The notes under the pieces are model-generated. The model searched no databases, was not told the DNA's origin, and saw only the letters and a list, made by a program, of their open reading frames with translations. Source: a bacterium (GTDB lineage: Bacteria; Patescibacteriota; Doudnabacteria; UBA920; 2-01-FULL-46-14). From it: 64,000 nucleotides of DNA. Shown here one piece after another: positions 3,050 through 61,136 of the stretch. A program made the translations under genes and the position numbers. How positions within the stretch are numbered: position 1 is the stretch's first letter; every line of letters starts with the position of its first letter. The DNA lies in the NCBI GenBank assembly GCA_030700065.1, contig JAUYKH010000041.1, positions 4,659 to 68,658 on the forward strand, given 5' to 3'.

Positions 3050-4044
3050 TTTATGAGGTGGAACAACCTAATTTTTTGGATCTTTTGGGCTTTGCGAGGC
3101 CGCGACCCAACAACCCCGATCTCCTAAAGGGGATTACTCTTGTCGGGTCAGGGAAAGGCGCCTTGGCTTTGGTCTTGAGGCACTTGAAAGAACGAGGGGT
3201 TATCAGAAACAAATTGGACGAGATACTTGTTCCAGATTGGCTGGGGTATTGGGTGTATAACCAAATTCAACCCTACGCTTTTCCGGCCAAGCGTTTGTCA
3301 GATCGCACGCGGGCGATATTGGTGTATCATCAATACGGTTTTCCGCAGGACATGGACAAAATAATGGCAACAGCTAGAGAAAAAAATTTGGTCGTCATTG
3401 AAGATTGCGCGCATGCGGTTTTTTCCCATTACCGGGGAAGGCGTTTGGGCTTCATTGGCGATTATTCGATATTTAGCTTTTCCAAGTGGGCGTTTTGTTA
3501 CGCCCTCGGCGGAGTACGGGGAAATGATGAATTTGAGGAATTTGCCAAAGAGGCAATAGGGAATACCGCCTTCGGATTGACAATGTTCAAGGATAGCGCG
3601 AAATGGTTTTATGAAAAAAGCAGACACTCCAAATATGCGAATTATTTGATTCAGATGTCTTATGCCCTCTATGGGCAGGCCCTCAAACCGGGGGCAGCCG
3701 CAGTCCGCCTTTTGAAGGCCAAACTGGAAGCGGAGATTAATTTGCGGCAAAAACGCTACCAGGAGTTCCGTCGAGCAACCGATTCGTCAGGTCTGTGCGA
3801 CCGTTTGGAAAAGGATGGGGTAACGCCTTATGTCATCCCGATACGAGTAAGGTTGGATCGGCAGGAATCCGTCGTCAGCGCGTTGGCCGTAGCCGGCATA
3901 GAATCCGGGATTTATCAATTTGACGCAAACCGCAATTTATTGGCGCCAAATTATATCTCGACCGTTTGGATTCCCTGCCACGGTGGAATATCGGAAAATG
4001 CATTTGCACAAATCATTGAAATTGTAAAAAAAAACAATGAATGA
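3046..4044 (+). CDS. Divergent DegT-like aminotransferase-fold protein (paralog B)
   Basis: 332 aa. ILVPDWL..RTRAILVYHQYGFPQDMDKIM..VIEDCAHAV..FSFSKWAF is collinear with paralog A. Confidence 0.5.
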   Translation: MIYEVEQPNFLDLLGFARPRPNNPDLLKGITLVGSGKGALALVLRHLKERGVIRNKLDEILVPDWLGYWVYNQIQPYAFPAKRLSDRTRAILVYHQYGFPQDMDKIMATAREKNLVVIEDCAHAVFSHYRGRRLGFIGDYSIFSFSKWAFCYALGGVRGNDEFEEFAKEAIGNTAFGLTMFKDSAKWFYEKSRHSKYANYLIQMSYALYGQALKPGAAAVRLLKAKLEAEINLRQKRYQEFRRATDSSGLCDRLEKDGVTPYVIPIRVRLDRQESVVSALAVAGIESGIYQFDANRNLLAPNYISTVWIPCHGGISENAFAQIIEIVKKNNE

Positions 4045-13370: not shown

Positions 13371-15800
13371 ATGCCTGCAAACAATAAAAAAAGAAAAGCG
13401 ATTATTTTAGGAGCCGGCCCTTTAGGTTTGGTGACCGCGTGGAAACTCCTGGAAAACGGCTGGAAGGTTGAGATTTACGAGAAGCAGAATATGGTTGGCG
13501 GCTTGTGCCGCACGTGGAGGTGGCGGGATTTCCTGGTTGATACCGGCCCGCATATATACCACACTCCAGACCCCCAGCTGGCGAAATTTTGGGAAGCGGA
13601 GTTTGGTGATCTTATGCTGAAGGGAGAATTTTGGTGTAAGAACGTGCGCGGTGATCAATTCGAAGAATATTGGGATTACCCTCTGTCCTGGGAAAGCATA
13701 TCGCGGTATCCGCTTAAGCTTAAGGAAAAAGTCTTGAAAGAATTGCAGGAACGCTCCGAGGAGTCCAAAGTCAAAGCAAGAAATTATACGCAATATATGG
13801 AGGCTCAAGTTGGTCCGACACTGCGTGAAATGTTTTTCAAATCGTATCCCGAAAAAATTTGGGGTATCACAACCGATGAAATGACGCCTGGCTGGGCGCC
13901 AAAACGCATTGAATTTCGGCAGAAAGTAACCCCTTTTTATCACAATCAATGGAACGCGGTCGGCAAATTCGGAACGGGATGCGTCTATGAACGAATTAAG
14001 GAAAAAATTGATTCGTTGGGCGGGAAGGTTTATTTAGGCGCGCAGGTGACCAACATAGTTCCAGAGGGCGGTGGGCGGCTGAAACGGATAACCTTCGCCG
14101 ATCGAGAGGCTGTCGAGATTGGACCGGATGACGTTGTCATCTCCAGTCTGCCAATTACCCTAACCGCCAGATTTTTTGGACATGAAAGCTCGCTGCGCTT
14201 CCGCGGCATTACTTCCGTGTATCTGGCCTACAAAAAAGAGTCGATCCTCCCAAAAGGGATTCATTGGCTCTATTATGGCTCCCCGAATGTTGATTTTAAC
14301 CGCATTACCGAACCCAAAAAACTCTCTCCTTACGTCGCGCCTACGGGCGAGACTTATCTCACTGTGGAAATTACCATGAGCCCCGGGGATGAAATCGACC
14401 GCATGGATCCGCAGGAGTTGTCAGGGCGCGTGGCCGCTCAAGTGGAAAAAGCCGGTCTGGCCCGAAAAGAGGAAGTGATTGACTCGAGCGTGAATAAGGA
14501 AAGGTTTGTCTATCCCTTGCAGTACGCGGGATATCAGGAAGAACTGGCAAAAACACGCGCTGTTGTTTCCAAATATCAGCAGCTGTTTTCCATCGGCACT
14601 GGCGGGGATTTTAGTTACGCTGATAGTCAAATTCTTTTTCATAAGGCATTTGATACGGTCTCCATTCTATGCGGAAAAGATTCGTCTTATACCCAGGTGA
14701 TTCGCCAGACTCCGCAAATTAGTTTCAACCAGATAGTTCGAATGGGTGAACGTAAAGTTGGTGATGGCGAGCAGCCCTATATCATCGCCGAAGCGGGACT
14801 CAATCACAACGGGAGCCTCGATCTGGCCAAACAGCTGGTTGACGCGGCCGCGAAAACCGGCGCGGATGCTGTAAAGTTTCAAACGTTTCAGGCGAAAAAT
14901 CGAATTTCCAGGAAAGTGAAGGCCGTCAAATATGCTGAAACAGTCATTGGCACGGAAGAGACGCTTTACGAGATGTTTGACCGATTGGCCATGTCGTTTG
15001 AGGACCAGAAACAACTGTTTGCTTACGCCAAGGATAGGGGAATCGAGGTTTTTTCGACCCCCTTTGACGAGGAAAGTGTGGATTTTCTCGAGTCGGTCGG
15101 CGTGAGGTTTTATAAAATTGCCTCAATGGATCTCGTCAATTTACCCTTGATTGAGCGCGCGGCAAAAACTGGCAAACCGATTATTCTTTCGACCGGGATG
15201 TCGACGCTTGGGCAAATAGAAGAGGCGGTCGAGGTCGTACAGAAAGCCGGTAACCCGAATTTGGTGCTTTTGCATTGCAATTCATCGTACCCGGCCGCGC
15301 CCGAGGAGATGAACCTCAATGTTATCAAGACCTTAAAGCAAGCGTTCGGGGTACCGGTGGGGCTTTCTGACCATACTTTGGGTTTAACAGTTTCCCAGAC
15401 TGCTTTAGCGATTGGAGCCAACATGATCGAGAGACATTTTACCCTGGATCGGACGTTTGAGGGACCAGACCACATTCTTTCGTCCGAGCCTCAAGAGTTT
15501 GCCGAGCTTGTGAGATTGTCCAAAAACACCCCCCCGATCAAATTGACAAAACAGATTTCCCAAATCCTTGGCGATGGAGTGAAGCGGATTCAGCCGAGCG
15601 AATACTCAACACTCAACACCCAGCGCAAGAGTCTGTATGCCGCGGCGGATATAGAGACTGGCGAGCCAATTACCAAAGAGAAGATTATTATTAAAGGCCC
15701 GGGCGGGGGACTGCTGCCAAAGTATTTGGATATGGTCGTGGGGCGCGTCGCCCGCAAACGCATCGAGAGCGATTATCCGATTACTTGGGAAGTTATTTAA
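13371..15800 (+). CDS. Fusion protein: N-terminal FAD/NAD(P)-binding amine-oxidase/UDP-galactopyranose-mutase-like oxidoreductase + C-terminal NeuB-family synthase #2
   Basis: 809-aa continuous ORF. N-term ILGAGPLGLVTAWKLLENGWKVEIYEKQNMVGGLCRT is a dinucleotide-binding fold. From about aa 440, YIIAEAGLNHNGSLDLAKQLVDAAAKTGADAVKFQTF..LHCNSSYPA..GLSDHTLG is a full NeuB domain. Confidence 0.7.
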   Translation: MPANNKKRKAIILGAGPLGLVTAWKLLENGWKVEIYEKQNMVGGLCRTWRWRDFLVDTGPHIYHTPDPQLAKFWEAEFGDLMLKGEFWCKNVRGDQFEEYWDYPLSWESISRYPLKLKEKVLKELQERSEESKVKARNYTQYMEAQVGPTLREMFFKSYPEKIWGITTDEMTPGWAPKRIEFRQKVTPFYHNQWNAVGKFGTGCVYERIKEKIDSLGGKVYLGAQVTNIVPEGGGRLKRITFADREAVEIGPDDVVISSLPITLTARFFGHESSLRFRGITSVYLAYKKESILPKGIHWLYYGSPNVDFNRITEPKKLSPYVAPTGETYLTVEITMSPGDEIDRMDPQELSGRVAAQVEKAGLARKEEVIDSSVNKERFVYPLQYAGYQEELAKTRAVVSKYQQLFSIGTGGDFSYADSQILFHKAFDTVSILCGKDSSYTQVIRQTPQISFNQIVRMGERKVGDGEQPYIIAEAGLNHNGSLDLAKQLVDAAAKTGADAVKFQTFQAKNRISRKVKAVKYAETVIGTEETLYEMFDRLAMSFEDQKQLFAYAKDRGIEVFSTPFDEESVDFLESVGVRFYKIASMDLVNLPLIERAAKTGKPIILSTGMSTLGQIEEAVEVVQKAGNPNLVLLHCNSSYPAAPEEMNLNVIKTLKQAFGVPVGLSDHTLGLTVSQTALAIGANMIERHFTLDRTFEGPDHILSSEPQEFAELVRLSKNTPPIKLTKQISQILGDGVKRIQPSEYSTLNTQRKSLYAAADIETGEPITKEKIIIKGPGGGLLPKYLDMVVGRVARKRIESDYPITWEVI

Positions 15801-23379: not shown

Positions 23380-26130
23380 ATGGATTTTTATAGCAAAAAA
23401 TCAATCAAAATAATAGTGACCCTTGGTCCCGCCACCAGAACCGAGGCTGATTTGCGTCAAATCAAGGCGCGCGGGGTTGATTTTGTCCGCATCAATATGT
23501 CTCATTCCACCCTGGAAGATTTAAAGTATTTTATCGGTCTCGCGAAAAAAGTTGATATCCCGTTTATCATTGATACTGAAGGGTCCCAGGTGCGAACCGG
23601 TGAGTTGGCAGAAAATTCGATTGAGCTTGCTGAAAACGGCGAAGTCAAAATTTTTGCATACCCGAAGATTGGCGGGCCGCGGGAAATTGCGCTCAAACCC
23701 GCGTACATTCTACCCCTGCTCGAAAAAGGTGACATCCTGCATGTGGATTTTGAGAGTGCGATTTTGCGTGTCACAGACACTTCGACTCTTCCTCGGGGGT
23801 TTGTCCGAGCAAGAGCCATCAGCGCCGGCAGGGTTGGACGAAATAAAGCCGTAGTAATTGATTCTGTCATGCCCAAACTTCTCAATCTGCCGCCATTATC
23901 CAGCAAGGATTACGAATCAATCAGAATTGGCCTTCAGGAGGGGATAGGGCATGTGGGCGCTTCGTTTATGCGTTCAGCTGATTTTGTTGAGGAGGTACGC
24001 AAAGCAAGCCGGGACAAAATGCAGATCATTTCCAAAATTGAGTGCGTGGACGCGCTTAACAATCTTGGGGAAATTATCCAAGCGTCCGATTATTTGCTTT
24101 TGGACCGCGGTGATTTGAGCAAAGAGGTCCCGATCGAGAAAATTCCATTTTTGCAAAAACATATTATCAACGAGGCGCGCACTTTGGGCAAAGGCGTGTT
24201 TGTCGCCACAAACTTTTTGGAATCAATGGTCGCAAACAAGCGGCCGACCCGCGCGGAGGTGAGTGATGTTATAAACACAATTTTGGACGGGGTGTATGGC
24301 GTGGTGCTTTCGTCCGAGACAGCCATTGGCCGCTATCCCATCCGGAGTATCAACATGATGAACAAACTCATCGCAGAGGGGGAAGGAATGGTAGGCCATC
24401 AGGTGAATGGATTGTCAGATATTGGCCAAAGCAACCTCATACTCCCGCACGGGGGAAAACTGATTGATCGAGTTTTGAGGGAAATTCCCGAGTTTGACTT
24501 TCGCAACATGCCAAAGATTCAAATTGATGACGAGACTTATATGGATCTGGAACAAATCGCTCAAGGAACCTTTAGCCCGCTGGAGGGATTTATGTCCAAA
24601 GAGGAAGTACAAAGCGTGCTCGACCACACGCGTCTGCCAAGCGGAACCATCTGGCCTCTTCCCATTGTTTTGAGCGTTCCCAGCGAGCGAGCGGATAGCA
24701 TTGAAGCCGGACAAACAGTGGTTTTGACGGATCAGACCAGTCAGCCAGTGGCGCTACTGCACGTGGATGATAAGTACCAGTTTGGTTTGAGCGAGTTTGC
24801 GAAAAAATTATATGAAACAGAAAATTTGGAGCATCCGGGAGTTAGAAGGGTGACAAATTATCATCCTTGGTTTCTCGGCGGAAAAATTGATCTCATCAGA
24901 AGGCGGCCTTCGGATCACAAGGAATACGAGCTGACCCCGCGGCAGGCCAGACGTCTCTTTGCCGAACGCGGATGGCGGAGGATTGTCGGATTTCACACCC
25001 GAAATGTCATTCATCGCAGTCACGAGTTCATTCAACTCGCTGCCATGGACCGTGCTTCGGCTGACGGGCTTTTTGTCCATCCCGTGGTCGGCAAAAAAAA
25101 ACCGGGAGATTTTCATGCCGGATACATTATTCGAGCTTACGAAACAATGATGGAAAAATTTTATCCCAAGGACAGCGTGGTTTTGGGAACCTTCGCCACT
25201 TATTCCCGTTACGCCGGACCGCGCGAAGCGCTCTTTACGGCCATTTGCCGGCAAAATTTCGGCTGCAGTCATTTTATTGTAGGTCGGGACCATACCGGCG
25301 TAGGAAATTTTTACCATCCAAAGGCCAGTCACGAAATTTTTGACAAGTTTCCGGAACTTGAAATTATTCCTATCAGATTTGATAAAGTCTTTTATTCAAA
25401 AAAATTGCAAGACCACGTCCACGAGCCAGATGACCTGGGTCACGCGGAAGATGATAAGCTGCATATAAGCGGAACTGATGCGCGAAAACTTTTTGAAAAA
25501 GGCGAAGCCCCGCCGGAGTGGTTCATGCGCCCCGAGATTTCGCAAATAATTTTGGATGCAATAAATCAGGGCGAAGAAGTATTTGTTAAGGACGATCGGC
25601 CGAGCGGGTGCGTATTATGGTTCACGGGGCTTTCCGGTTCGGGCAAGACTACTGTCGCGGACCATTTGAAAGAAAAATTAGAGGTTAGAGGTTACACAGC
25701 GAAAATTTTGGACGGCGATGCCGTCAGGGCGACTCTACACAAAAATTTGGGTTTTACTCGCGAGGATATCAGGAAAAACAATGAAACCATAACGCGTTTA
25801 GCGAAGCAGGAGAGTCAAAAGCACGATTTTGTCTTGGTTCCGGTTATTTCTCCTTACGCAGAGGATCGGCAGATGGCGCGTGAGATAATGGGAAAGAATT
25901 TTTTTCTAGTCTATGCCGACTGTCCGCTTGAGGAATGTATTAAGCGAGACACGAAGGGTCTGTATCGGCGCGCGAGAGCGGGCGAGATCGAAAATCTTAT
26001 TGGTTTTTCAGAAACTAACCCTTATGAAGCGCCACAGGATTCTGATGTGACAATCAGCGCGCACCTGGAAAACCCCGAGCAAAGCTTAAAGAAGGTTTGG
26101 CAGTTTCTTAAAAGCAGGAGATTTGTATGA
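23380..26130 (+). CDS. Tri-domain fusion: pyruvate-kinase-like catalytic domain + ATP sulfurylase (sulfate adenylyltransferase) + APS kinase
   Basis: aa 1-330 carry PK barrel/A-domain signatures (IVTLGPATRT, RINMSHS, IIDTEGSQVRTG, ISKIE, LLLDRGDLSKEV, ATNFLESMVANKRPTRAEVSDV, VVLSSETAIG). The middle domain has IVGFHTRNVIHRSHE and HPVVGKKKPGDF of ATP sulfurylase. The C-terminal domain has WFTGLSGSGKTTVA of APS kinase. It is one 916-aa ORF. Confidence 0.75.
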   Translation: MDFYSKKSIKIIVTLGPATRTEADLRQIKARGVDFVRINMSHSTLEDLKYFIGLAKKVDIPFIIDTEGSQVRTGELAENSIELAENGEVKIFAYPKIGGPREIALKPAYILPLLEKGDILHVDFESAILRVTDTSTLPRGFVRARAISAGRVGRNKAVVIDSVMPKLLNLPPLSSKDYESIRIGLQEGIGHVGASFMRSADFVEEVRKASRDKMQIISKIECVDALNNLGEIIQASDYLLLDRGDLSKEVPIEKIPFLQKHIINEARTLGKGVFVATNFLESMVANKRPTRAEVSDVINTILDGVYGVVLSSETAIGRYPIRSINMMNKLIAEGEGMVGHQVNGLSDIGQSNLILPHGGKLIDRVLREIPEFDFRNMPKIQIDDETYMDLEQIAQGTFSPLEGFMSKEEVQSVLDHTRLPSGTIWPLPIVLSVPSERADSIEAGQTVVLTDQTSQPVALLHVDDKYQFGLSEFAKKLYETENLEHPGVRRVTNYHPWFLGGKIDLIRRRPSDHKEYELTPRQARRLFAERGWRRIVGFHTRNVIHRSHEFIQLAAMDRASADGLFVHPVVGKKKPGDFHAGYIIRAYETMMEKFYPKDSVVLGTFATYSRYAGPREALFTAICRQNFGCSHFIVGRDHTGVGNFYHPKASHEIFDKFPELEIIPIRFDKVFYSKKLQDHVHEPDDLGHAEDDKLHISGTDARKLFEKGEAPPEWFMRPEISQIILDAINQGEEVFVKDDRPSGCVLWFTGLSGSGKTTVADHLKEKLEVRGYTAKILDGDAVRATLHKNLGFTREDIRKNNETITRLAKQESQKHDFVLVPVISPYAEDRQMAREIMGKNFFLVYADCPLEECIKRDTKGLYRRARAGEIENLIGFSETNPYEAPQDSDVTISAHLENPEQSLKKVWQFLKSRRFV

Positions 26131-58345: not shown

Positions 58346-58568
58346 TACCATGGTTCAAGAATGCAGTTCTAATACTCCACACTATGCGACCCAGTTAAAT
58401 TTAATTACTTGACCATATGCGTATCAAGAGCAGAAGCGAAGTGAGTATCATTCACTTGCCCAGCAAAGAACATTAGCCCGTCTCGTTTCGGCTTCGCCGA
58501 GGTGGACGAAAGCTGGTAATTCGCTAGAATTGCGTAAATACGCCACCCGGCTGGCGTATTTAGCTCTC

Positions 58569-58590
58569 GGAACAATTCCATGGAATTGTT
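58569..58590. repeat. Perfect 22-bp palindrome GAACAATTCCATGGAATTGTTC (copy 1 of a repeated palindromic element)
   Basis: Self-complementary, and its core AACAATTCCATGGAATTGTT recurs at 59992-60019. Confidence 0.6.
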
Positions 58591-58614
58591 CAATGACTCA
58601 ATATGTGAGCCGTT

Positions 58615-58667
58615 GGGAAATCGCCTAAGGGTCGGAGATCGCGAGCGTAGTCGAGTGGGCGGTTTTT
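58615..58667 (+). repeat. Expanded-loop terminator-like repeat (AAATCGCC..TAGTCGAGTGGGCGGTTTTTT), copy A
   Basis: AAATCGCC..GGCGGTTTTTT outer stem enclosing ~35 nt (..GGTCGGAG..TAGTCGAGT). A near-identical copy lies at 60718-60770. Confidence 0.5.
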
Positions 58668-58682
58668 TGGTATACTTTTTGT

Positions 58683-59414
58683 ATGAAATCACATGATGCT
58701 TTTGGTAAATACCTTCTTTACCAATACAAAAATTTGCCAAATAAGATAAATGAAATCGTTGAAAGAGACGACGGTTTTATCGAGGGCAGTTCTTATTCAG
58801 ACAGGTACTTTGAAGATTATCCAAAGTGGTCAGAAAAAGAAAAAAAAGCTATTGCGCTGGCACGAGGTAGGGTTTTAGACATAGGGTGCGGCGCGGGCAG
58901 ACATTCGCTATATCTGCAACGAAAAGGTTTTGATGTAACAGGGATTGATAATTCTCCTGGGGCCATCAAAGTTTGTAAATTAAGAGGGCTGAAAAAAACA
59001 AGGCTGCTATCTGTTGAACAGATAGGTAATTTCAAGCCCGACTCGTTTGATACCATCATGATGATGGGTAATAATTTTGGGTTATTTGGTAGCTCGCGGA
59101 AGGCCAAAACTCTTCTGGGAAAGTTATCCAAAATAACTTCTCGCCATGCGAAAATTATTGCCGAAAATAGAAATCCTTACAGGACCAATAGAAAAGTTCA
59201 TCTTTCGTACCATGAATTCAATAGAAAGAGAGGGCGTCTGGCCGGGCAACTAAAATTAAGAGTAATATTTAATAAGATAATCGGCGATTGGTTTGATTAT
59301 TTGTTTGTTTCCCCTCAAGAAATGAGAAAGATACTGAATGGTACTGGATGGAAAATTAAAAGGATAATTTCTGAAAAAAGTCCTGATTACATTGTGGTGA
59401 TTGAAAAGTTATAG
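58683..59414 (+). CDS. Class I SAM-dependent methyltransferase
   Basis: VLDIGCGAGRHSLYLQRKGFDVTGIDNS motif I. Confidence 0.6.
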   Translation: MKSHDAFGKYLLYQYKNLPNKINEIVERDDGFIEGSSYSDRYFEDYPKWSEKEKKAIALARGRVLDIGCGAGRHSLYLQRKGFDVTGIDNSPGAIKVCKLRGLKKTRLLSVEQIGNFKPDSFDTIMMMGNNFGLFGSSRKAKTLLGKLSKITSRHAKIIAENRNPYRTNRKVHLSYHEFNRKRGRLAGQLKLRVIFNKIIGDWFDYLFVSPQEMRKILNGTGWKIKRIISEKSPDYIVVIEKL

Positions 59415-59492
59415 ATGGTTCTAGTTTCAACATCCTGCACCACCTGTCCTCCGAAGTTTTTAACGTAGTATGGCCGCGCCCCCAAGAAAATT

Positions 59493-59855
59493 ATGACAAA
59501 ACGAATTGACAAAAGGTTTGCGTATCAAAAAATGGGGTTTCACGAAAGTATTGTGCCGCAAGTTTTTGATGGGAAAATAAGTACTTGGAGATTAAGAGAC
59601 CACAAATTAAGAAAAGGCGATGTTGTGGCTTTTGAAAACAGTCAAACGGGAGAAATCTTCGGCTTCGGAAAGATAACCAAAGTCGTCAAAATAACCGTCG
59701 GACAGATAGACTTAAAGGACGAAACTCACTATAAAACATATAAAAATAGACAAGAACTCATAGGAGCATTCAAGCGTCATAATCCTACTTATAAAGTTAA
59801 CAATCATACACCAGTTTTTGCCTATACATACAAGTTCATAAAAATAAAACTATGA
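59493..59855 (+). CDS. ASCH (PUA-like) domain protein
   Basis: ..WRLRDHKLRKGDVVAFENSQTGEIFGFGKIT.. resembles the ASCH beta-barrel pattern. Confidence 0.45.
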   Translation: MTKRIDKRFAYQKMGFHESIVPQVFDGKISTWRLRDHKLRKGDVVAFENSQTGEIFGFGKITKVVKITVGQIDLKDETHYKTYKNRQELIGAFKRHNPTYKVNNHTPVFAYTYKFIKIKL

Positions 59856-59879
59856 ACGAAACCCAAAAACTCAATGGTT

Positions 59880-60050
59880 ATCCAGCGAAGATGTTAGGGC
59901 AGAAGTTGAAATAAAGTAAGTTCTAATCCTGTTCCCGCCAGAGGCGGGCAGGCACGAATCCGCCCCGGGCAAACGGCTCAGCCGTTGAGCCGTTCAACAA
60001 TTCCATGGAATTGTTGAACCAGCCCTACCGAGGACGGACCTCGTTTTTTG
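59880..60050 (+). ncRNA. Candidate structured non-coding element ending in an intrinsic terminator
   Basis: About 170 nt with no ORF. Stable hairpins CCCGCC-AGAG-GCGGG, AACGGCTCAGCCGTT and tandem AGCCGTT are present. It also holds the 28-bp perfect palindrome GTTCAACAATTCCATGGAATTGTTGAAC (59992-60019) and terminator CGAGG-ACGGA-CCTCG+T6 (60029-60050). Confidence 0.3.
59992..60019. repeat. Perfect 28-bp palindrome GTTCAACAATTCCATGGAATTGTTGAAC (copy 2)
   Basis: Shares a 20-bp core with 58569-58590. Confidence 0.6.
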
Positions 60051-60137
60051 TTTGTGGAAAACTGTCTCAAGGCTCGGTGGTATCGTTAGTCAAAACGACT
60101 TTGACAAAACAATCGGATAGATTAAGATAGACTCATT

Positions 60138-60314: not shown

Positions 60315-60407
60315 CCTTGATCAAAACAGTAGCCGCGCGCATTCATTGACCCGGGGTGCACAACCCCGAAATTGACAAAATATTCAGAAGAAATTAGAGT
60401 AAAAGAT

Positions 60408-60677
60408 ATGAGTGATAATCATTTGAAACAATCTGTAACGAAGGAGTATTTAGGCGAATTCACGGAAAAGGTGCTTTTGCCTGCAATTGCGGAATTATTA
60501 AAGCCGTTGCAGGATGATATAGAGGCTTTGTCTGCCAAAGTCACGACCCATCTAGAGCTCTCCGACAAGCGCTATCTGCAACTAAAAAACAGGGAAAAAC
60601 TTTTAGCCAAATGGATCAAGCAGATTGCGGACAAAACCGGAGTCAGCATTGATCTTGCGGAACTTGAAAAATTTTAG
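60408..60677 (+). CDS. Hypothetical protein (89 aa)
   Basis: ATG 60408 is preceded by TTGACA-N17-TAGAGT. The ORF track starts at an in-frame TTG at 60372. Confidence 0.35.
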   Translation: MSDNHLKQSVTKEYLGEFTEKVLLPAIAELLKPLQDDIEALSAKVTTHLELSDKRYLQLKNREKLLAKWIKQIADKTGVSIDLAELEKF

Positions 60678-60717: not shown

Positions 60718-60770
60718 AAATCGCCCAAAAGGTCGTAGGCCCCGAGGATTAGTCGAGTGGGCGGTTTTTG
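60718..60770 (+). repeat. Expanded-loop terminator-like repeat, copy B
   Basis: AAATCGCCC AAAAGGTCGTAGGCCCCGAGGATTAGTCGAGT GGGCGGTTTTT is collinear with copy A. Confidence 0.5.
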
Positions 60771-60892: not shown

Positions 60893-61096
60893 ATGTCTAT
60901 GAATGGTGTAGTCAAGAAAAAGACTGACAAGGGTTTTGGATTCATAACCGTTGAAGGTCAGGAAAAGGATTTGTTTTTCCACAGCAAATCCCTCGTCGAC
61001 ATCACATTCGACGAGCTCAACGAGGGCGACAATGTCACCTTTGATGTTGAGGAATCGCCAAAAGGACCAAACGCGGTCAACGTAAAGCGCGTTTAA
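60893..61096 (+). CDS. cspA: Cold-shock protein (CspA family)
   Basis: GVVKKKTDKGFGFITVEGQEKDLFFHSKSL gives the RNP1 KGFGFI and RNP2 motifs. 67 aa. Confidence 0.85.
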   Translation: MSMNGVVKKKTDKGFGFITVEGQEKDLFFHSKSLVDITFDELNEGDNVTFDVEESPKGPNAVNVKRV

Positions 61097-61105
61097 GACC
61101 CTTTT

Positions 61106-61136
61106 CCAAAAAATCGCCCAAAGGGCGATTTTTTGT
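61106..61136 (+). terminator. Rho-independent terminator (simple member of the AAATCGCC..GGCGATTTTT family)
   Basis: AAAAAATCGCCC-AAA-GGGCGATTTTTTG. Confidence 0.55.

Follow-up and report, generated by a model that had tools for sequence, protein, structure and literature searches.

A 64,000-nucleotide stretch of contig JAUYKH010000041.1, from a member of the Doudnabacteria, carries two long perfect palindromes that share a 20-bp core and lie on either side of a methyltransferase gene and a second short gene. The locus raises the question of what this palindrome is for and why it is present twice. A preliminary description made from this stretch (hereafter, the window) had proposed an operator for a dimeric regulator, a restriction-like site, a mobile element of the repetitive extragenic palindromic (REP) or miniature inverted-repeat transposable element (MITE) kind, or a pair of paralogous small RNAs. 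We consider it probable that the palindrome is the core of a specific site for a small ArsR/SmtB-family regulator conserved across the candidate phyla radiation (CPR), and that the window carries two satellite sites of a regulator encoded elsewhere. The sequences examined here establish the motif, its distribution, its coupling to a regulator gene, and a covariation between protein and DNA.

Two copies of one palindrome in the window

The 20-mer AACAATTCCATGGAATTGTT is present at positions 58571-58590 and again at 59996-60015, and the 64-kb window holds no further match at up to three mismatches. None of 100 shuffled windows reached two matches. The perfect palindromes around the two copies, of 22 bp (58570-58591) and 28 bp (59992-60019), are the two longest in the window. 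Thus, the shared 20-bp core within two intergenic perfect palindromes was correctly recognized in the preliminary description, as was the position of the 28-bp palindrome, whereas the 22-bp palindrome had been placed one position off (58569-58590).

Both palindromes are intergenic. The gaps around them measure 337 nt (58346-58682) and 282 nt (59856-60137), and the sole open reading frame (ORF) that overlaps these gaps runs from 58405 to 58740 on the minus strand with a TTG start. The two regions had been depicted as structured and ending in T-tracts. Indeed, they fold more stably than shuffled sequences (z = -3.6 for 58425-58565 and z = -3.0 for 59918-59995), and T-tracts close them at 58661-58666 and 60044-60049. 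The palindrome copies are oppositely oriented, in that the 24 nt 3' of copy 1 are complementary to the 24 nt 5' of copy 2, and the resulting inverted repeat between the two regions spans 44 nt (84%). Beyond the palindrome and an adjoining companion hairpin, alignments in both orientations reveal no sequence common to the two regions.

A 12-2-12 inverted repeat spread across Patescibacteria

The exact 20-mer was found in 39 stretches of a species-representative genome collection, where by our own estimate ~0.5 would be expected. Nearly all of these stretches are from metagenome-assembled genomes (MAGs) of Patescibacteria/CPR, among them Kaiserbacteria, Saccharibacteria (L016 and L018), Paceibacterota, Falkowbacteria, and Campbellbacteria, and several MAGs hold more than one copy. 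The core is thus widespread in CPR genomes, whereas its absence from relatives would have spoken against the preliminary description. The PilB protein of the window matches Doudnabacteria proteins at 100% (a partial protein), then at 82% and 77%.

A consensus built from 141 distinct sites reads yCATTG-AACAATTC-(C/T)AT(A/G)-GAATTGTT-CAATGr, with core positions 2-8 essentially invariant, and the weight matrix of the motif holds ~41 bits of information. The motif parses as a ~32-bp inverted repeat, TTGAACAATTCC-AT-GGAATTGTTCAA, with the 12-2-12 geometry that SmtB/ArsR proteins are documented to recognize in promoters (PMC8790569). At the central pair (positions 9 and 12), 67 of the 141 sites have C/A, 39 have T/G, 26 have C/G, and 9 have T/A. 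The CCATGG center of the window is therefore a minority form; most centers are asymmetric (CCATAG/CTATGG), and one clade carries GCGC.

By this definition, site 1 of the window extends from 58565 to 58596 and site 2 from 59990 to 60021, each a ~32-bp ArsR-type inverted repeat to which no strand is assigned. The right flank of site 1, CAATGA, equals the family consensus, and its left flank agrees at position -1 (G) only. The flanks of site 2, GTTC...GAAC, represent a C-type flank variant. The two sites score 42.5 and 33.2 bits, respectively, on the weight matrix, compared with a median of 43.7 for the training set. No other position in the window scores above -5.3 bits, a value comparable to that of shuffled sequence.

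Most matches outside the CPR look spurious. Those in Sulfurovum (L012, L034, and L038) were read as chance, since all lie within one conserved ORF, as was a match in Holosporaceae (L029) that is inside an ORF and has no flank symmetry. Exact sites are also carried by four contigs labeled Nanoarchaeota (L001, L014, L017, and L024; JAUYPG01), which look misbinned or mislabeled because L017 encodes a bacterial-type IF-2. Likewise, a stretch labeled Bacteroidaceae (L019), with three sites in 8 kb, is possibly a CPR contig that was misbinned.

Coupling of the motif to a small regulator gene

A gene of ~90 codons lies 14-43 nt from the palindrome in 8 of the 39 loci. All four of the close site pairs, whose members are 326-376 bp apart, bracket a gene for a ~90-amino-acid protein with an HTH_5 domain. 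As an independent test of this association, we fetched 80 metagenome loci by the protein alone and searched for the core, at up to three mismatches, within 250 nt of the 83 regulator genes that they contain. A site is located upstream of 69 of these genes and downstream of 67, and 61 have both. Genes seemingly without a site mostly carry the GCGC-centered variant.

The upstream site is often also the promoter. Specifically, the regulator promoter consists of TTGAAC, formed jointly by flank and core, followed after 18 nt by cTATAAT, with the ATG soon after. A TATAAT-like hexamer (at least 5/6) is located 0-3 nt past the core at 31 of 59 upstream sites, whereas the three control classes yield 8/58, 7/59, and 5/58. 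Autorepressors classically have this layout. A putative operator at or overlapping the promoter is thus found at the regulator gene, but not in the window, where neither site has an adjacent -10 element. Beyond the 3' end of the regulator gene, 41 of 55 loci continue with a co-directional gene and the other 14 with a convergent one.

Arrays of two or three sites spaced by ~60-140 bp precede some regulator genes (L045 2820-2959, L111 30-222, L086 2768-2927, and L078 1686-1829), and this spacing suggests cooperative or multi-dimer binding. At two loci of the GCGC class, the downstream site is followed by a gene for a TraG/TrwB-type coupling ATPase with T4SS-DNA_transf / TrwB_AAD_bind domains (L130 1269-3008 and L131 2938-4878), a hint that the system is in some cases located beside DNA-transfer genes.

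Features of the ArsR-like protein

The product of this gene is a small (about 88-95 amino acids), cysteine-free winged-helix protein of the ArsR/SmtB family. Pfam assigns it to HTH_5 (37-38 bits; cut-off 22) and HTH_20 (29-34 bits; cut-off 27). Its match to the NCBIfam model HTH_metalloreg is borderline (54-57 bits against a cut-off of 55), and the match to the SdpR autorepressor model is weak (44 bits, under the cut-off). Profile matches to PDB entries at ~1e-10 include CzrA, SmtB, HlyU, CadC, and NolR. The proteins form a distinct, tight set of 82 clusters, and every cluster with a named source is from Patescibacteria.

An AlphaFold2 model of the single chain (predicted local distance difference test score of 88) has the topology a1-a2-a3-aR-b1-b2-a5, including a C-terminal dimerization helix. 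Its elements are helices at residues 3-14, 17-26, 34-41, 45-57, and 80-89 and strands at 61-64 and 71-74. In Foldseek comparisons with the PDB, the best matches have template modeling (TM) scores of about 0.75, with HlyU the closest (0.76-0.78), along with CzrA, YgaV, NolR, CadC, and SmtB.

A metal or metalloid sensory site, composed of a3/a3N Cys residues or of a5 Asp, His, or Glu residues, was not found: no alignment column has Cys in three or more of 65 proteins. Conserved His residues in these 65 proteins occur only in the SNH of the recognition helix and the GH of the wing. By fold, then, the protein belongs to the ArsR/SmtB family, but it is not a classical metalloregulator.

Covariation between recognition-helix residues and bases of the site

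Two residues of the protein track the bases of its neighboring sites. The first flanking base (position -1) tracks residue 46, which is K with G in 53 cases and T with C in 9, with 3 exceptions. Residue 46 immediately precedes the invariant ATSNHL sequence and, in the AlphaFold2 model, occupies the second position of the recognition helix. It probably aligns with a DNA-contacting Ser of CzrA; a literature search for the CzrA contact residues found nothing.

The second residue, at position 50 (the x of S-x-HL), tracks the central 4 bp. Proteins of the N type have yATr at 137 of 138 flanking sites, and those of the K/Q/R type have GCGC at 8 of 10. When this rule was used as a prediction, all five previously unseen loci with a K- or Q-type protein (P0058, P0060, P0066, P0068, and P0076) proved to be bracketed by GCGC-centered sites, located 24-78 nt upstream and 12-60 nt downstream of the regulator gene. 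Though in part clade-level, both covariations are as expected if the protein reads the bases directly, and none of the rival explanations accounts for them. They delineate three putative specificity classes linked to two recognition-helix residues.

A predicted role for the two sites in the window

Among the explanations offered in the preliminary description, the operator of a dimeric regulator is strongly supported: 61 of 83 regulator genes are bracketed by the site, the promoter is overlapped, and bases of the site covary with residues of the recognition helix. We propose that one dimer would place its two recognition helices on the invariant ACAATTC/GAATTGT blocks, whose centers are 11 bp apart. 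Residue 50 of the helix would read the central 4 bp, and residue 46 the flanking base at position -1. The protein would autoregulate its own gene through an upstream site that supplies the -35 element (TTGAAC) and abuts or overlaps the -10 element, with a second site located past the stop codon.

For the window, this proposal calls for a regulator of the N type (ATSNHL) that is presumably encoded elsewhere in the same genome. This protein would bind the two sites and modulate transcription into, out of, or across the unit that they bracket. The window copies are satellite sites bracketing the methyltransferase gene and the gene for a 120-amino-acid protein; they are not operators within a promoter. 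Because neither overlaps a promoter, a roadblock or looping is likelier there than promoter occlusion. Roadblock, looping, or insulation is thus a plausible, if speculative, role for the window sites.

Several observations weigh against a regulator of this kind. No regulator of the ArsR-like family is encoded in the 64-kb window, and the protein of the other loci shows no recognizable sensory site. The two window sites overlap no promoter, each lies upstream of a terminator, and each is ~100-130 bp from the next predicted promoter. Orphan sites in general are intergenic and dispersed, and 11 of them lie between convergent genes. Promoter control is impossible at this third or so of the orphan sites and at 14 of the 55 regulator-downstream sites, because these are between convergent genes. 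A conserved regulon did not emerge when 261 site-adjacent proteins were clustered; no family but the regulator recurs beside the sites. In our judgment, ~41 bits exceeds what a typical operator needs. Finally, each covariation may reflect few evolutionary events, because both are largely at the level of clades.

Alternative explanations for the motif

A regulator with an operator is favored over three other accounts of the motif. In the one that survives best, the bound protein would delimit transcription units, acting as a roadblock, an insulator, or a looping factor, or would organize the chromosome and nucleoid much as parS/ParB or the Noc-binding site (NBS) and Noc do. It would do so throughout the CPR and independently of a ligand, and would not be a signal-responsive repressor; the two sites in the window would insulate the methyltransferase unit. 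Much of what was just listed is in keeping with this account, namely, the orphan and regulator-downstream sites between convergent genes, the lack of a conserved regulon among site-adjacent proteins, the protein without a Cys or His sensory site, and the high information content of the motif. Furthermore, genes are bracketed by sites and not merely preceded by them, and both window sites come at the close of transcription units (3' ends), directly ahead of terminators. However, the site upstream of the regulator gene has the textbook form of an autoregulatory operator, and a module of site plus terminator is not general (10 of 179 sites compared to 61 of 586 random intergenic control positions). 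Moreover, other ArsR-family members without metal sites (HlyU, NolR, and PagR) are ordinary transcription factors. We therefore regard a purely boundary-marking protein as unlikely.

A second account treats the motif as a selfish element of the REP or MITE kind and the winged helix-turn-helix (wHTH) gene as its associate, comparable to a REP-associated tyrosine transposase (RAYT) gene between REPs. The window pair would then be the terminal inverted repeats of a 1.4-kb cassette, and the 44-nt inverted repeat does end the segment with the methyltransferase and 120-amino-acid genes. The account also fits a regulator gene with copies on either side, orphan copies scattered between genes, and heterogeneous neighbors of the sites. 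Also in keeping are the few copies located inside much longer perfect palindromes, the longest being 52 bp (L013 1058-1109; others are L019 1490-1531, L018 6354-6393, and L042 ~3298-3337). At least six extra complementary pairs are present at 7 sites, compared to 1.6 expected from the control.

Nevertheless, the protein is a DNA binder of ~90 amino acids with no catalytic domain, and no transposase is evident. The window pair, which comprises the only two copies in 64 kb, shows no target-site duplication, and searches of viral contigs with the exact 20-mer and with the general motif returned no copies. Among 95 comparisons of related loci, there was no clean presence/absence indel; the site is kept at the orthologous position, and seeming absences were either projection artefacts or GCGC-center variants. 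Furthermore, the core is invariant across phylum-level lineages and covaries with the protein, which points to binding kept by purifying selection and not to recent copying. The mobile origin raised in the preliminary description is accordingly very unlikely.

Least probable of the three is a function in RNA form, in which the hairpins serve in 3' untranslated or intercistronic regions as stabilizers, processing sites, or terminators, or are parts of two paralogous small RNAs. The palindrome hairpins are stable in their context (-10.6 and -22.2 kcal/mol; z = -2.7 and -3.2), both are within ORF-free, hairpin-rich stretches that end in terminators, and many sites in other genomes directly follow stop codons. 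However, sites are not enriched beside U-tract terminators, and upstream copies are in the promoter, largely ahead of the transcription start. The commonest center is non-complementary (the C/A pair at positions 9 and 12). Mismatches of the G.T and A.C types are equally frequent, with 186 versus 184 in the flanks and 25 versus 19 in downstream sites, where the transcribed strand is known and an RNA structure would favor G.U pairs. Thus, there is no sign of constraint at the RNA level.

The extent of the symmetry is likewise that of a protein footprint, since it fades ~16 bp from the dyad; past flank position 7, an average of 2.63 of 8 pairs are complementary, compared to 2.21 in a shuffled control. 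In addition, both sites of one locus tend to carry the same flank variant: at positions -1, -3, and -4, the two agree in 42, 36, and 41 of 51 cases, respectively. The symmetric variation therefore follows the locus and hence the protein. The parity of mismatches, the footprint length of the palindromy, and the shared flank variants fit a dimeric DNA-binding protein and speak against an RNA hairpin. As for paralogous small RNAs, the two window regions have in common only the site and a short hairpin (~30-46 nt), in opposite orientation, and neither region matches Rfam at the gathering score or at E ≤ 10. When the regions were compared by blastn with about 125 loci, the palindrome alone matched. 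Matches of the microRNA type to Rfam at one locus (L086) were rejected as an artefact, as two adjacent palindromes there mimic a long hairpin. A Type II restriction site, the remaining proposal of the preliminary description, is excluded because the center of the motif is variable.

Comparison with known regulators and repeats

An ArsR-family autoregulator with an inverted-repeat operator is a well-known kind of system. The CPR proteins and their sites resemble the SmtB, CzrA, and AztR repressors in having the same fold, a 12-2-12 inverted repeat with a TGAACA-like element, and an operator over the regulator's own promoter. They differ in several respects. The CPR protein has neither the a3N cysteine site nor the a5 Asp/His metal site, two sites bracket its gene, and genes for metal resistance are absent from the neighborhood. 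The CPR site, at 41 bits and shared by phylum-level lineages, is much more strongly conserved. The register also differs from that of SmtB-type operators, because the CPR repeat has its TGAACA outermost and ACAATTC as its invariant block; a known 12-2-12 operator for comparison is AATACCTGAACA-GA-TGTTCAAGTATT (PMC8790569).

The closest structures belong to the non-metal ArsR regulators (HlyU, NolR, PagR, SdpR, and BigR/SqrR), which are likewise small dimeric wHTH proteins without classical metal sites. HlyU, BigR, and SqrR sense via cysteines, and the CPR proteins differ from them in having none. We know of no operator sequence common to the CPR family and the non-metal ArsR regulators.

Outside the ArsR family, HrcA and its CIRCE operator (controlling inverted repeat of chaperone expression) provide a possible analogy. 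CIRCE is a long, near-perfect inverted repeat that is nearly unchanged across phyla, is often present in more than one copy, and is found in transcribed regions. The resemblance would lie in the long conserved inverted repeat, as both the protein and the sequence are unrelated; in addition, CIRCE governs a defined set of heat-shock genes, and no such regulon is evident for the CPR motif. REPtrons, composed of REPs and a RAYT gene, are similar in that the palindrome flanks its own gene on both sides and has dispersed intergenic orphans, often between convergent genes. A RAYT is a Y1 transposase. By contrast, the CPR system encodes a 90-amino-acid wHTH protein without a catalytic domain, has two copies in 64 kb, shows no insertion polymorphism, and has sites that covary with recognition-helix residues.

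A full-text literature search returned no description of the motif, of a CPR ArsR regulon, or of any CPR transcription factor paired with a binding site. The CPR family, its site, and the three specificity classes therefore appear to be new. They combine a conserved regulator with a precisely defined, predicted site that spans phylum-level lineages, and they offer a ready-made recognition rule for the ArsR fold that relates residues 46 and 50 to the flank and center bases. The site also provides a handle for regulon mapping in mostly uncultivated organisms. The near-universal bracketing of the regulator gene, together with orphan sites between convergent genes, hints at a function beyond simple promoter occlusion. 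As for the window, an unexplained repeated palindrome becomes a pair of predicted protein-binding sites around a methyltransferase unit.

Other elements and genes near the sites

The structured regions around the two sites are a mosaic of a repeated terminator, the companion hairpin, and unique GC-rich hairpins. The companion hairpin of site 1 (58595-58616, plus strand) has the form GACTCAA-TATG-TGAGCCGTTGG, with GAGCCGTTGG starting 16 nt past the core and facing the bracketed genes. Its counterpart at site 2 (59970-59994, minus strand; AACGGCTCA-GCCGT-TGAGCCGTT) is the mirror image, also 16 nt from the core and on the inner side. A short motif that the preliminary description had noted in both regions is part of this hairpin; it is present as the 8-mer GAGCCGTT (58607-58614 and 59987-59994), not as a 9-mer. 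The companion hairpin is lineage specific. Beyond the window, it was found 36 nt past two sites of one locus (L086 3420-3450 and 4538-4568) and beside no other site. Its general form is G[GA]CTCAA...TGAGCCGTT[GT]G, with copies that are mirrored in the window and direct in L086. At the latter locus, the likeness between the two units runs on for >100 nt into a GC-rich stretch.

A terminator-like long stem (58620-58667, plus strand; AAATCGCC.../...GGGCGGTTT followed by a T-tract) starts 29 nt past site 1. The same ~50-nt module, AAATCGCC...TAGTCGAGTGGGCGGTTTTT, is found at 60718-60769 after an ORF (60372-60677), with no site there, and the two copies are identical at 20 of 20 positions (58648-58667 versus 60750-60769). 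A simpler relative, AAAATCGCCCAAAGGGCGATTTTTTG, is located at 61112-61136, 3' of a gene for a cold-shock-domain protein (60893-61096). Site 2 is followed after 13 nt by an intrinsic terminator (60029-60049, plus strand; CGAGG-ACGGA-CCTCG and then TTTTTT).

Four GC-rich hairpins upstream of site 1 (58425-58565, plus strand) and further GC-rich hairpins upstream of site 2 (59918-59969, plus strand; CTGTTCCCGCCAGAGGCGGGCAGG and neighbors) are unique to the window. The former region includes a near-palindrome of 28 nt (58535-58562; TAAATACGCCACCC|GGCTGGCGTATTTA, 13 of 14 pairs) that is unique among the window and all fetched loci.

The first gene between the two sites (58683-59414, plus strand) encodes a class I S-adenosylmethionine-dependent methyltransferase (TehB/Methyltransf_25-like), and site 1 is 92 nt upstream of its ATG. 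As read from the sequence, an extended -10 element, TGGTATACT (58668-58676), is only 6 nt ahead of this ATG, and the mRNA is therefore probably leaderless. The sequence TAGTAT is similarly positioned 6-7 nt ahead of the regulator ATG at other loci (L010 and L026/L040). Together, these spacings suggest leaderless mRNAs in these CPR lineages. The second bracketed gene (59493-59855, plus strand) encodes a protein of 120 amino acids with no family match, and site 2 is ~100 nt upstream of the next predicted promoter. Multi-site loci in other genomes (e.g., L060, L070, and L046) repeat the layout of the window, with a site, one or two genes, and a second site.

The nearest relatives of the methyltransferase (L121, L123, and L124/L125; about 64-67% identical) have no motif nearby, even at five mismatches. 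At L124/L125 (3029-4732), the relative is third in an operon led by another ArsR-family regulator, without the motif. This regulator (in L124) belongs to a different ArsR subfamily and is 35% identical to the CPR family. The operon is a second, independent link of the methyltransferase family to ArsR-type control.

Two further ORFs of the window, both on the plus strand, encode large multidomain proteins. The first (13371-15800; 809 amino acids) joins a flavin amine-oxidase domain to NeuB (sialic/nonulosonic acid synthase) and SAF domains. The other (23380-26130; 916 amino acids) has an unusual combination of a pyruvate-kinase barrel with PUA_2, ATP-sulfurylase, and APS-kinase domains and sits in an apparent polysaccharide/sulfation gene cluster.

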